Positions 32,790 to 64,000 of a DNA stretch of 64,000 nucleotides are shown here, in pieces. Under the pieces are notes generated by a model, which was not told the DNA's origin, did no database searches, and saw only the letters and a list, made by a program, of their open reading frames with translations. The stretch comes from Escherichia coli (GTDB lineage: Bacteria > Pseudomonadota > Gammaproteobacteria > Enterobacterales > Enterobacteriaceae): the NCBI RefSeq assembly GCF_016026235.1, contig NZ_CP065613.1; one strand, written 5' to 3'. The position numbers and the translations under genes were made by a program. Within the stretch, counting starts at the first letter, position 1; the number at the start of each line of letters is the position of its first letter.

Positions 32790-32830
32790 ATTCTTATCAG
32801 TAAGTTGACATTATAAAAAAGCATTGCTTA
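32788..32830 (+). other. Prophage attL junction: degenerate core (tattcttatcagtaa) followed by lambda P' arm sequence
   Basis: Sequence from gttgacattataaaaaagcattgcttatcaatttgttgcaacgaacagg onward matches the lambda attP right arm as recalled; the preceding 15 bp match the lambda core GCTTTTTTATACTAA at only ~8/15. Confidence 0.6.
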
Positions 32831-32876
32831 TCAATTTGTTGCAACGAACAGGTCATTATCAGTCAAAATAAAATCA

Positions 32877-33946
32877 TTATTTGATTTCAATTTTGTCCCA
32901 CTCCCTGCCTCTGTCATCACGATACTGTGATGCCATGGTGTCCGACTTGTGCCCGAGAAGATGTTGAGCAAACTTATCGCTTATCTGCTTCTCATAGAGT
33001 CTTGCAGACAAACTGCGCAACTCGTGAAAGGTAGGTGGATCCCCTTCGAAGGAAAGACCTGATGCTTTTCGTGCGCGCATAAAATACCTTGATACTGTGC
33101 CGGATGAAAGCGGTTCACGACGAGTAGATGCAATTATGGTTTCTCCGCCAAGAATCTCTTTGCATTTATCAAGTGTTTCCTTCATTGATATCCCGAGAGC
33201 ATCAACATGCAATGTTGTAGGGATGGCAATTTTTACGCCTGTTTTGCTTTGCTCGACATAAAGATATCCATCTACGATATCAGACCACTTCATTTCGCAT
33301 AAATCACCAACTCGTTGCCCGGTAACAACAGCCAGTTCCATTGCAAGTCTGAGCCAACATGGTGATGATTCTGCTGCTTGATAAATTTTCAGGTATTCGT
33401 CAGCCGTAAGTCTTGATCTCCTTACCTCTGATTTTGCTGCGCGAGTGGCAGCGACCGGGTTTGTTGTTATATGGCCTTCAGCTATTGCCTCTCGGAATGC
33501 ATCGCTCAGTGTTGATCTGATTAACTTGGCTGATGCCGCCTTGCCCTCGTCTATGTATCCATTGAGCATTGCCGCAATTTCTTTTGTGGTGATGTCTTCA
33601 AGTGGAGCATCAGGCAGCCCCTCCTTATTGCTTTAATTTTGCTCATGTAATTTATGAGTGTCTTCTGCTTGATTCCTCTGCTGGCGAGGATTTTTTCGTA
33701 GCGATCAAGCCATGAATGTAACGTAACAGAATTATCACTGTTGATTCTCGCTGTCAGAGGCTTGTGTTTGTGTCCTGAAAATAACTCAATGTTGGCCTGT
33801 ATAGCTTCAGTGATTGCGATTCGCCTGTCTCGGCCTAATCCAAACTCTTTACCCGTCCTTGGGTCCCTGTAGCAGTAATATCCATTGTTTCTTATATAAA
33901 GGTTAGGGGGTAAATCCCGGCGCTCATGACTTCGCCTTCTTCCCAT
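32877..33946 (-). pseudogene. int: Lambda-type integrase Int, frameshifted (two ORFs 33551-33946 and 32877-33569)
   Basis: N-terminal MGRRRSHERRDLPPNLYIRNNGYYCYRDPRTGKEFGLGRD... and C-terminal ...HLLGHKSDTMASQYRDDRGREWDKIEIK lie in different frames; apparent 1-nt deletion near 33585. Confidence 0.85.
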
Positions 33947-34142
33947 TTCTGATCCTCTTCAAAAGGCTACCTGTTACTGGTCGATTTAAGTCAACCTTTA
34001 CCGCTGATTCGTGGAACAAATACTCTCTTCCATCCTTAACCGGAGGAGGGAATATCCTGCACTCGCGTACCCATCGACGAACTGTTTCAAGGCTCCTTGG
34101 GCGTCGCTGGCGTGCGTTCCACTCCTGAAGTGTCAAGTACAT
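33924..34142 (-). CDS. xis: Excisionase Xis (lambda-type)
   Basis: 72 aa MYLTLQEWNARQRRPRSLETVRRWVRECRIFPPPVKDGREYLF... Confidence 0.9.
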   Translation of the reverse strand: MYLTLQEWNARQRRPRSLETVRRWVRECRIFPPPVKDGREYLFHESAVKVDLNRPVTGSLLKRIRNGKKAKS

Positions 34143-34226
34143 CGCAAAGTCTCCGCAATTACTCGCAAGGGAGCGAGTATTGGTTTATTTTCTCCAACAA
34201 AAAAGGAGCCGAAGCTCCTTTGATGA

Positions 34227-34850
34227 TTAAAATTCGAATTGTCTCGCCCGAAGGCTTTTCAGCATTGGTTTTGCCCGTTCGAAAAGGGCGCTTGCTTGGT
34301 CAAGTCGTGTCGCCTCCCTTAGCAGTACATCTCTGTTTTTCGTCACCGTGTAAAAAGTTTCAAACGCGATGTCATACAGCTTGCTCGTGTATGATGAGTT
34401 CAGTTCCTTCAATATCGGGTACAGACGTTTGCAGATGTCCTGCGCATTCTCCATCTGTACCTGCATATAGCAAAGGAGGATGATTTCTTCGTCTGTGAAT
34501 TGCTGCGCTGGTTGCATGCTGCGAAGTTTCTTTTCGCACTCGATGAAGTATCGGCGTATCTGGCGGCCTTTTTCGTTACGCTCGACCATCGCCGTTTCTT
34601 TGGCTGTATCGAGGGTGAGGTGATAGTCTTTGCTACGGCGATCGCCTCCACGTCCTTTGATCCCCCTGTTTTGGTGAACCAAAATGTAATCGACATCAAC
34701 GGCAAAGCCGTATTCTGTTATGCGATTTTTAATCCATGTAGAGAAGTCACGACGTACTTCCAAAAATTCGTGTAAATCACGGGCATTAACGAGAAGAGTT
34801 GTTTCGTTGGATATAGTGCCGTTGAATACGGGGATGAGTTGACTGGTCAT
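34227..34850 (-). CDS. Phage antirepressor-like protein (AntA/AntB-type)
   Basis: 207 aa; N-terminal LIPVFNGTISNETTLLVNARDLHEFLEV resembles AntA-family proteins. Confidence 0.55.
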   Translation of the reverse strand: MTSQLIPVFNGTISNETTLLVNARDLHEFLEVRRDFSTWIKNRITEYGFAVDVDYILVHQNRGIKGRGGDRRSKDYHLTLDTAKETAMVERNEKGRQIRRYFIECEKKLRSMQPAQQFTDEEIILLCYMQVQMENAQDICKRLYPILKELNSSYTSKLYDIAFETFYTVTKNRDVLLREATRLDQASALFERAKPMLKSLRARQFEF

Positions 34851-35171
34851 TTTTATGTCCTTTGCATTTGTTCAGATAGCCCTGTGTTCAGCAGGGCGGT
34901 CAGGTACTTGAACACCGTGCAAAGTCGGCCCGTATCCTTAACCTTTCGGCTGTTTTTCGGTATACGCGCTACCCGACCATATCTGAAAAATGGACATAAA
35001 AAATCCGCATGACTGACGGGTGCGGTTTCCGCTTTGCAAGGTGTGTTCAGCACCATGAAGCGGAATATAGCCCCGTTAATGCGGTGTTGTCAAATCATGT
35101 AGGCCTTATCTTGCTGTAAGCCGCGCCATTCGGGCTTTTCCCCACATTTGGGGAAAACTATCTTGTCAAAA

Positions 35172-62293: not shown

Positions 62294-62379
62294 ACGTCGC
62301 AGACAACAACTCTGATGGCCCGTAAGGGCTTTTTTTGTACCTGAAATCAGCCCCTGAACGGGGCTGTGCGGAGACAGTT

Positions 62380-62703
62380 ATGGCAAAGAATTTTGTAGAA
62401 GAAGGAAAAACGGTGGCGATTGTTGCCAGTGCAGCCATCAGCAGCGGAGATCTGGTGCAGGTGGGTGATGTTTTTGCGGTGGCGCTGACCGATATTCCAC
62501 AGGGTGAAACAGGCGACGGCCTGACCGAAGGTGTGTTTATGCTGCCTAAGCTGAAAACGGATGACATGAAAACGGGTAAGAAGGTTTTTCTGAAGTCCGG
62601 AAAAGTTCAGCTGACTAACAGCGGCTCTGATCCGCTGGTCGGGGTTGTCTGGGCAGATGCCGGAGCTGGTGCAGAAGAAGTGCCGGTAAAACTCAATGTC
62701 TGA
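62380..62703 (+). CDS. Small head-associated protein (DUF2190-like)
   Basis: ~107 aa ORF MAKNFVEEGKTVAIVASAAISSGDLVQVG... Confidence 0.45.
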   Translation: MAKNFVEEGKTVAIVASAAISSGDLVQVGDVFAVALTDIPQGETGDGLTEGVFMLPKLKTDDMKTGKKVFLKSGKVQLTNSGSDPLVGVVWADAGAGAEEVPVKLNV

Positions 62704-62971
62704 TCCCTTTTCCCGGCTGGCAGCGCGTATGGATGCGATCACGGTCAGAAAGATGGGAAAGATGGCCTCGATTAATGATGTTTATATGCCTGTGCTCCCG
62801 GGAGAAACTCTGGCAGAGCTGAACGCTCTGTCCGGACCGGCGGTCTCTCTGGTGGTGTTTTCTTCGGGATACCGCCCACGGCGCGGGGACCGCGTTGTTT
62901 ATGACGGACAACAATGGACGGTCACACGGCATGAACGCTTTAACGGTAAACCAATGATCTTTATTGAGTAA
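62696..62971 (+). CDS. Hypothetical head-tail connector/adaptor protein
   Basis: 91 aa ORF in the head-completion position. Confidence 0.4.
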   Translation: MSDPFSRLAARMDAITVRKMGKMASINDVYMPVLPGETLAELNALSGPAVSLVVFSSGYRPRRGDRVVYDGQQWTVTRHERFNGKPMIFIE

Positions 62972-62982
62972 AGAGGTGTGGG

Positions 62983-63567
62983 ATGAAGGGGCTTGAGAAT
63001 GCCATCCGTAATCTGAACAGCCTCGATACCCGCATGGTGCCACAGGCCAGCGCATGGGCGGTAAACCGTGTGGCGGCAAAGATTATTTCTGTCGCCACAC
63101 GGCAGGTTGCGCAGAATACCGTTGCCGGGGATAACCAGGTGAAAGGTATTCCCCTGAAAACGGTCAGGGAGCGTGTCAGGCTGCTTAAAGCCAGCCCCTC
63201 AGGAAAAATGTATGCCCGCATGCGTGTTAACCGGGGTAACCTGCCCGCCATTAAGCTGGGTACCGCACAGGTCAGACTGGCCCGCTCCCGGCATGGCAGC
63301 AACTCACGTCATCGTGGCAGCGTACTGAAAGTGGGGAAATACCTTTTCCGGGATGCGTTTATTCAGCAACTGGCGAATGGTCGCTGGCATGTGATGCGGC
63401 GTATTGACGGCAAAAATCGTTACCCCATTGATGTGGTGAAAATCCCGCTGTCCGGACCGTTGACACAGGCATTTGAAGATGCCCGCGACCGCATCATTGC
63501 TGCGGAAATGCCGAAACAGCTGGGGTATGCACTGAAACAACAACTGAGGTTATGGCTGACCCGATGA
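62983..63567 (+). CDS. Hypothetical head completion/connector protein
   Basis: 194 aa ORF. Confidence 0.4.
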   Translation: MKGLENAIRNLNSLDTRMVPQASAWAVNRVAAKIISVATRQVAQNTVAGDNQVKGIPLKTVRERVRLLKASPSGKMYARMRVNRGNLPAIKLGTAQVRLARSRHGSNSRHRGSVLKVGKYLFRDAFIQQLANGRWHVMRRIDGKNRYPIDVVKIPLSGPLTQAFEDARDRIIAAEMPKQLGYALKQQLRLWLTR

Positions 63568-63965
63568 ACCGACATACACAAATCCGCCAGGTCGTACTGG
63601 CACGCCTTCGGGAACAGTGTGGAGACAGCGCCACGTTTTTTGACGGGCTTCCGGCATTTGTTGATGCGCAGGAACTGCCTGCCGTGGCGGTGTGGCTGAG
63701 TGATGCTCTGTACACCGGAAAAATGACGGATGAAGATGACTGGCAGGCTGTTCTGCATATTGCTGTCTTCATCCGGGCACAGGCACCGGATTCAGAGCTG
63801 GATATGTGGATGGAGAGCACCATTTTCCCGGCCCTGAATGATGTACCTGCATTTTCCGGACTCATCGACACCCTGATCCCACTCGGTTTTAACTATCAAC
63901 GTGATAATGAGATGGCCACCTGGGCGATGGCGGAAATCACGTACCAGATCACGTACACGAATTAA
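63552..63965 (+). CDS. Hypothetical tail-attachment/head-tail joining protein
   Basis: 137 aa ORF overlapping the upstream gene. Confidence 0.4.
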   Translation: MADPMNRHTQIRQVVLARLREQCGDSATFFDGLPAFVDAQELPAVAVWLSDALYTGKMTDEDDWQAVLHIAVFIRAQAPDSELDMWMESTIFPALNDVPAFSGLIDTLIPLGFNYQRDNEMATWAMAEITYQITYTN

Positions 63966-64000
63966 GGAGGTGGCAATGACCACACCAAATCCACTGGCAA

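Follow-up and report, generated by a model that had tools for sequence, protein, structure and literature searches.

The window analysed here, a stretch of 64,000 nucleotides from the Escherichia coli contig NZ_CP065613.1 (RefSeq assembly GCF_016026235.1), joins a segment of the conserved chromosome to a lambda-like prophage. The first 32.1 kb represent the ftsZ-lpxC-secMA-mutT-...-aroP-pdhR-aceEF-lpd region, and the prophage, which interrupts yacH, runs from its left attachment site (attL) to beyond position 64000 with its right end lying outside the window. Among the 49 prophage genes in the window five are frameshifted (int, cII, Ant, terS and a DUF7301 gene) and the remaining 44 are intact, and the prophage also carries two insertion sequences (IS), IS600 and IS4. 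In contrast, all 28 proteins of the core region, ftsZ to lpd, are encoded at full length in a single frame. Each of the five frameshifts is the loss of one base from a homopolymer of five or six bases, and all were located to the base against close intact relatives (Table 1).

Table 1. Coordinates of the core and prophage features of the window (aa, amino acids; ORF, open reading frame; sRNA, small RNA; HTH, helix-turn-helix).
Feature	Position	Strand	Remarks
PssrA-type sRNA	152–241		Rfam, gathering score; upstream of ftsZ
STnc40	5888–5957		Rfam, gathering score; after secA
IS3-family element	6423–7854	-	1432 bp, ends TGAAC...GTTCA; intergenic, mutT-yacG spacer
tp2 antisense	25713–25826		Rfam, gathering score; upstream of aceE
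yacH 3' part	32106–32804	-	K-12 residues 353–617 (tblastn); cut off by the prophage
attL	32790–32876		Core-like overlap ATTCTTATCAGTAAG, then lambda P' arm; aligned to lambda 27727 onward and to yacH
int	32877–33946	-	Lambda-type integrase split into 131-aa and 230-aa ORFs; 1-bp deletion at 33618–33621, coding-strand G5 to G4
xis	33924–34142	-	Intact, 72 aa (72 aa also in relatives)
IS600	39950–41213	-	1264 bp; orfA 100 aa, orfB 272 aa; 3-bp target duplication
N antiterminator	41716–42042	-	108 aa, intact; nutL boxB at ~42145–42160
IS4	42343–43768	+	1426 bp; transposase 442–448 aa; inverted ends
cI-type repressor	43816–44550	-	HTH and Peptidase_S24, intact
cII	44922–45290	+	A6 to A5 at 45162–45166
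O, P, ren	45250–47173	+	312 aa, 233 aa and 96 aa; all intact
DUF7301 gene	47654–47868	+	A5 to A4 at 47756–47759; fifth frameshift
NinB, Dam-type methyltransferase, NinE, HigA, HigB	48132–49952		Methyltransferase 176 aa, HigA 101 aa, HigB 92 aa; all intact
Rha-family remnant	51014–51274	+	86 aa; old scar
Ant antirepressor	51271–52040	+	ORF6N and ANT/KilAC domains; A5 to A4 at 51602–51605
Q antiterminator	52581–53099	+	172 aa, intact for its family
tRNA-Asn(GTT), tRNA-Thr(TGT)	53163–53318	+	
Lysis cassette	53435–54581	+	Holin, endolysin (165 aa), Rz/Rz1; all intact
terS	55979–56472	+	DUF1441 family, intact length 164 aa; G6 to G5 at 56087–56091
Late genes	56472–63965	+	terL (700 aa), head-tail adaptor, portal (501 aa), ClpP-protease/capsid fusion, decoration protein, neck/tail-terminator; all open

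The core region was queried by tblastn with 20 K-12 proteins (FtsZ to Lpd) and eight proteins annotated in FDAARGOS_943, the nearest complete genome (99.8–99.9% identity), these eight being a GH43 hydrolase, a GPH symporter, a TssD/Hcp-toxin, three immunity proteins and two small ORFs, and no frame change was found in any of the 28. An alignment of the whole 32.8 kb to FDAARGOS_943 contains 21 mismatches and four indels. Two of these are 1-bp differences in intergenic runs (T9 vs T8 and A9 vs A8), a third is a 28-bp segment at the hofB/hofC junction (window position 12056) which is present in the window and missing from FDAARGOS_943, where hofB is a pseudogene owing to this loss, and the fourth (position 17896) is an in-frame deletion of 12 bp in the GPH-family symporter of the window. 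The core region is not free of mobile DNA: an IS3-family element, also present in FDAARGOS_943 and adjoining a naRNA4/REP-type match (7913–7990), sits in the spacer between mutT and yacG, and yacH, which is uninterrupted in FDAARGOS_943, is split by the prophage, with the two sequences diverging after 32804–32807.

Both the ORF map and the family matches give the prophage a lambdoid gene order (int-xis, early left, N, cI, cro, cII, O, P, nin, Q, lysis, terminase and head). Its left arm consists of int, xis, two antirepressor-like genes, ea22/DUF551-type genes, Abc2, SSB and a Sak4-like annealase, and is followed by IS600, cIII, N, nutL, IS4, cI, cro, cII, O, P, ren, several small genes, NinB, Dam, NinE and HigBA. 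Next come an ORF6N/P22AR antirepressor, the Rha remnant, Ant, RusA, NinH, Q and the two tRNA genes, and the late region then runs through holin, endolysin, Rz/Rz1, a KilA-N gene, terS, terL, adaptor, portal, protease-capsid, decoration and neck genes. Identity to lambda (NC_001416) is 98% for the att P' arm, int and xis and 94–100% for cIII/kil, N-nutL, the C-terminal half of cI and cII-O-P-ren, whereas the recombination module (Sak4-like, SSB, Abc2), the N-terminal domain of the repressor, Q, the lysis cassette and the head genes differ, as do the core/overlap sequence and the bacterial site (yacH rather than gal-bio). Other candidate lesions in this map were rejected: the 86-aa Rha ORF is not specific to this lineage and the same remnant (84 aa) is found in all relatives, Q is not a truncated form of the 207-aa protein of relatives and belongs instead to a different Q family in which every member has 172 aa (profile positions 1–164/165), and the left-arm genes, checked for truncation, cover essentially the full PHROG profiles.

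In the case of int, the DNA of int-xis differs from that of yacH-resident relatives with an intact int (356 aa) by one single-nucleotide polymorphism (SNP) and one gap in 1,401 bp, and alignment to lambda places the missing base at 33618. Restoring this base gives an Int protein that differs from lambda Int at three of 356 residues (H164P, A245T and I248V) and is found exactly in at least 1000 contigs; it is of the lambda type, with arm-binding N-terminal and tyrosine-recombinase C-terminal domains as in its relatives, and stands beside a P' arm ~97% identical to that of lambda. TerS, when repaired in the same way, is likewise found exactly in at least 1000 contigs. Repaired Ant is found exactly in 164 contigs and is 256 aa in all relatives; a fragment from an NCTC genome (STH71905.1) was considered as the same lesion and rejected, as it results from another frameshift in another prophage. 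The DUF7301 lesion is apparent from the 69-aa ORF starting at 47654, which matches positions 1–36 of phrog_1785 while the next frame matches positions 34–71 of 71, and restoring the A yields the 71-aa length of the intact relative and a protein found exactly in 23 contigs; an alternative repair by an additional C gives a protein that was not found. The single restored base therefore makes Int, Ant, TerS and the DUF7301 protein 100% identical to proteins on 23 to more than 1000 contigs, and a single event separates each of the four genes from a common intact allele, a distance that would fit either a very recent mutation or an error. The cII product retains native residues 1–81 followed by an out-of-frame tail of 41 aa that overlaps the start of O. 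We rejected an interpretation of cII as a complex triple indel relative to lambda, as two of the indels represent a natural in-frame variant, GTGTGGCAAACC (PVWQT for PAAT), of other phages, and alignment with other cII alleles shows that the contraction of the A-run alone shifts the frame.

The two IS elements are both full length and flanked by target duplications. IS600 has the features of this member of the IS3 family and is 99.1–99.4% identical to other copies, with no indels relative to four of them; it is inserted at lambda 33314–33316 (the duplicated bases), which corresponds to kil codon 5 and cIII codon 50, and so separates kil codons 1–5 from the rest of the gene and trims cIII to 50 of its 54 residues, leaving the cIII thermoregulator (Rfam, 41318–41376) intact ahead of it. 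Genes distal to IS600 in the pL operon are likely to be subject to polarity. IS4 has the features expected of that element, including a 12-bp target duplication, GACACTAAGGTC, at 42331–42342 and 43769–43780, and is inserted within a hairpin loop (AACCCGAC...GTCGGGTT then a T-run, minus strand) just downstream of the cI stop codon; we infer this hairpin to be the terminator of the cI transcript. We rejected the possibility that IS4 separates pL from N or breaks a gene: it sits between the cI stop and pL/oL with a clean duplication, every ORF around it is unbroken, and pL/oL, nutL and N are still contiguous.

These results bear on the initial annotation of the window, which had reported no frameshifts in core genes, at least four in the prophage (int, terS, an antirepressor and possibly cII) and two IS insertions there. 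The first and last of these statements hold, and all four frameshifts were found, although the number was slightly understated as the DUF7301 gene adds a fifth; the comparison with intact relatives that had been proposed as a check placed each of them to the base. That the lesions lie in the prophage and not in the core is correct for the frameshifts, but not if the split yacH and the IS3-family element are included, and the description of the IS insertions and cII as inactivating is apt for IS600, which hits kil, and less so for IS4, for cII and for the trimmed cIII.

We think it likely that the window captures the early mutational decay of a lambda-like prophage which was integrated into yacH by Int, the host belonging to an E. 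coli lineage rich in IS. The identity of the four repaired proteins to intact ones found elsewhere points to lesions of very recent date. Deletions by strand slippage and the transposition of IS would strike the whole genome, and such hits would be purged by purifying selection from essential core genes; in a repressed prophage they would be neutral, or favoured if they disabled excision, killing or packaging. IS600 and IS4 represent two simple transposition events, each complete.

A number of observations weigh against this interpretation, and the asymmetry between core and prophage is less telling than it appears. The coding DNA amounts to 27.1 kb in the core (28 genes) and 24.7 kb in the prophage (49 genes), and under uniform error the probability that all frameshifts fall in the prophage is, by coding length, 0.477^4 = 0.052 for four and 0.477^5 = 0.025 for five, or ~0.07 when weighted by runs of at least five bases (59% of which are in the prophage). 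The asymmetry alone is therefore weak evidence (p ~0.03–0.07), marginally beyond chance, and assembly errors are in any case not uniform and concentrate in repeated DNA. The functional effect of some lesions is also in doubt. The cII change may leave function, with its 81 native residues falling between the active and inactive forms described in PMC5869508, where CII1-87 complemented and CII1-77 did not; the same paper, citing Kobiler et al. 2002, gives the last 16 residues of CII as an FtsH degradation signal. Similarly, the trimmed cIII (residues 1–50) may still work because residues 14–37 are reported to be essential and sufficient (PMC1838920), and any loss of function attributed to IS4, which breaks no gene, is putative. 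Finally, long-read consensus error leaves the same trace, a single base dropped from a homopolymer, and independent confirmation in this lineage is confined to lesions other than those of int, Ant and terS. A search of 5,426 complete E. coli genomes did not find the Ant A4 allele, nor does the protein collection contain its 138-aa product, and terS G5 on the background of the window was found in no complete RefSeq E. coli (in more than 700 of these terS has at least 99% identity, and the best matches, at 99.8%, differ solely by their intact run). Between one and three of the frameshifts in repeated modules could still be assembly errors.

An assembly artefact would extend this argument to the lesions as a whole: homopolymer under-calls in a long-read or hybrid assembly, surviving polishing mainly in multi-copy DNA, would produce the asymmetry without any decay. 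We addressed this using independent draft and Sequence Read Archive (SRA) run assemblies of the same lineage, retrieved via neighbouring exact proteins. These are 99.99–100% identical to the window over 22103–32885, which covers the yacH/attL junction (GCA_002467135.1, GCA_002466675.1, SRR30892832 and ERR3372598), 99.9% identical over 40843–42382, which covers the right-hand IS600 junction and the left IS4 junction (GCA_001907395.1, contig L024), and 100% identical without a gap over 43707–49181, which covers the right IS4 junction and the cII and DUF7301 frameshifts (GCA_001907385.1 and Logan SRR30892832, L036/L037); a further segment, 52006–53633, is 100% identical in seven assemblies. The draft contigs end at 32885, inside the IS elements, and at 49181, 52006 and 53633, and int, Ant and terS fall precisely where they break (at 32885, in 49181–52006 and beyond 53633, respectively), which means that these stretches are repeated elsewhere in these genomes. 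Such repeat-caused breaks are where under-calls would be expected to survive, and the artefact would also explain why all five changes are single-base losses in short runs, and why the Ant allele is unique to the window. Some of the terS G5 carriers (L027, L031 and L034) are, in addition, visibly error-rich assemblies in which terL and portal are fragmented.

We nevertheless regard a general artefact as quite improbable. Lesions that were artefacts should not be reproduced in assemblies of the same lineage, yet the cII and DUF7301 frameshifts and the right IS600, both IS4 and the yacH junctions are, at 99.9–100% identity. Similar indels should also appear in other repeats or in the core, and none were found in the IS copies or in the 28 core genes, with the sole 1-bp core differences being the two long intergenic runs described above. 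The IS600, IS4 and IS3-family copies, which are the most repeated DNA of the window (4.1 kb with 23 runs of at least five bases), show no indel relative to other copies, and this argues against general homopolymer error in repeats. Furthermore, the int allele is present in several short-read-type assemblies of other strains, and terS G5 occurs within the head module of another complete genome (L035) that is 99.3–99.6% identical to that of the window. The cII, DUF7301, IS600 and IS4 lesions are therefore certain and the int and terS lesions are probable (both genes are frameshifted as sequenced, and both lie inside repeat modules not covered by same-lineage drafts), while the Ant lesion is the most doubtful of the five. 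The conclusion of the initial annotation that the asymmetry reflects genuine decay rather than uniform error is accordingly largely right, but because of the independent assembly evidence, which demonstrates decay in single-copy DNA, and not because of the asymmetry itself.

Early decay as we interpret it has consequences that can be read from the gene content of the prophage. Without Int there would be no excision and without TerS no packaging, and kil also appears to be lost, while the genes for the repressor, N, O, P, Q, lysis and the head have stayed open, suggesting a prophage that has recently been 'grounded' rather than one that is dead or an old cryptic remnant. Following induction it might replicate in place and lyse the host, and the retention of cI may now be obligatory for the host.

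It is also conceivable that the lesions reflect a selected domestication, in which grounding lesions (int, terS and kil) were favoured and the immunity and accessory genes were kept by selection, though we consider this unlikely. A second lineage of int carries the same frameshift: its exact 131-aa product is present on at least ten contigs of other strains (including loci L009–L015) in which the prophage occupies the canonical lambda site beside ybhC and the int DNA differs from that of the window by 18–20 SNPs (98.5% identity), and the 131-aa and 230-aa products are identical in both lineages. Similarly, terS has been inactivated elsewhere in at least three ways, as of ten loci retrieved via the C-terminal fragment (L026–L035) six have the G5 run, three have IS1 next to the gene and one has a different lesion. 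(The capsid gene in the close head modules of L032 and L035 has a frameshift of its own from G6 to G5, and the window is intact at this position, 61567.) The insertion of IS600 into kil, a host-killing gene, and the intactness of HigBA, Dam, the tRNAs and cI would also fit domestication. On the other hand, two of the five frameshifts (DUF7301 and Ant) are in genes without obvious host cost, and recurrence at short homopolymers could arise equally from hot spots or from recombination between co-resident lambdoid prophages; for int, the shared frameshift means that the same short G-run was hit more than once or that the allele passed between prophages by gene conversion. Moreover, genes are intact regardless of their role, and with 44 of 49 unbroken some 4–5 intact cargo genes are expected by chance. 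The earlier observation that cargo such as HigBA, Dam and the tRNAs is intact is thus accurate but carries no statistical weight, and selective retention of cargo cannot be claimed.

The att site of the prophage is present with adjoining int and xis (attL, with the overlap at ~32790–32806, followed by int and then xis), and the junction core is CTTATCAGTAAG in yacH compared with the lambda core TTTATACTAAG; a lambda-type gal-bio attB with the overlap TTTATAC was not found at this junction, and attR lies beyond the window. Identical yacH junctions are found in the independent assemblies (L062–L065) and in relatives (L057–L061), yet in none of the 5,426 complete RefSeq E. coli genomes, and we found no relevant report in the literature of yacH as a prophage attachment site. 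The yacH-resident prophages of NCTC and other E. coli (GCA_900448845.1, GCA_900449095.1, GCA_001907505.1 and GCA_902503545.1) share with the window the junction, the Int protein, int-xis DNA at 99.86% identity and the same 207-aa antirepressor adjoining xis, and three of the four also share its 240-aa antirepressor gene, in place of which GCA_001907505.1 has a 260-aa ORF6N gene. They differ in having an intact int (356 aa) and other early regions, some with Gam, RecT and YqaJ replacing Sak4 and SSB. We note that one 228-aa YacH fragment from the yacH-prophage lineage is from a strain named as O28ac:NM. Attachment in yacH thus recurs, with an integrase that is three residues away from lambda Int, and the same Int protein is also found at the canonical lambda site in other strains.

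This raises the speculative, and in our view very unlikely, joint reading in which one Int protein serving two attachment sites would be a natural lambda site-affinity variant defined by core sequence alone, and the short G-runs in int and terS would act as recurrent and possibly reversible grounding switches of lambdoid prophages. The latter part rests on the identical int frameshift in two lineages that are 1.5% apart and at two sites, and on the terS contraction from G6 to G5 in several genomes, and would require either strong hot spots under selection or the spread of grounded alleles among co-resident prophages by gene conversion.

Other features of the window are reported here for completeness. 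In the core region, a low-GC island (0.42–0.44) at 20983–24448 between aroP and pdhR encodes a 593-aa protein in which TssD/Hcp is fused to a pyocin/colicin-type DNase, and further carries three immunity genes and two orphan DNase-tip ORFs. In the prophage, O includes an in-frame iteron-like insertion of 39 bp at 45602–45640 in the origin region, giving a protein of 312 aa compared with 299 aa in lambda, and this is shared by several relatives. The 31 kb of prophage contain five antirepressor- or KilA-N-type genes (including the frameshifted Ant) plus the Rha remnant, and two of the antirepressor genes have Rfam matches upstream: isrK and C4 antisense RNA (50023–50207) directly upstream of the ORF6N/P22AR antirepressor at 50259–50945, and an sRNA-Xcc1-type match (34890–34978) upstream of the left-arm antirepressor at 34227–34850.

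Frameshifts and IS elements in resident lambdoid prophages beside an intact core are the standard picture in E. coli and its relatives, as seen in the K-12 cryptic prophages, O157:H7 Sakai, Shigella and enteroinvasive E. coli (EIEC). The DLP12, Rac and Qin prophages of K-12, the Sp prophages of Sakai and the IS-riddled ones of Shigella/EIEC resemble that of the window in their lambdoid order and integration next to int, in their inactivation by frameshifts and IS with some modules kept, and in the restriction of lesions to phage genes with the flanking core intact. In comparison with the K-12 cryptic prophages, however, the window prophage is far less decayed, with no large deletions seen in the 31 kb, 44 of 49 genes open, and every frameshift one base from a widespread intact allele (repair shown for Int, Ant, TerS and DUF7301). 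The phenomenon is therefore already known and represents ordinary early prophage decay, with only the early stage departing from the standard picture, and the label 'cryptic' which it had been given is too strong with so many genes intact.

For annotation, this means a lambdoid prophage that was recently grounded and has five pseudogenes, not three to four, in which the cII, DUF7301 and both IS calls are secure and those of int, terS and especially Ant rest on the sequence as assembled. More generally, an excess of frameshifts in a prophage does not by itself speak against sequencing error, since repeated mobile DNA is where errors and real decay alike accumulate. Finally, the use of yacH as a site by a near-lambda integrase may be of interest to lambda specialists.

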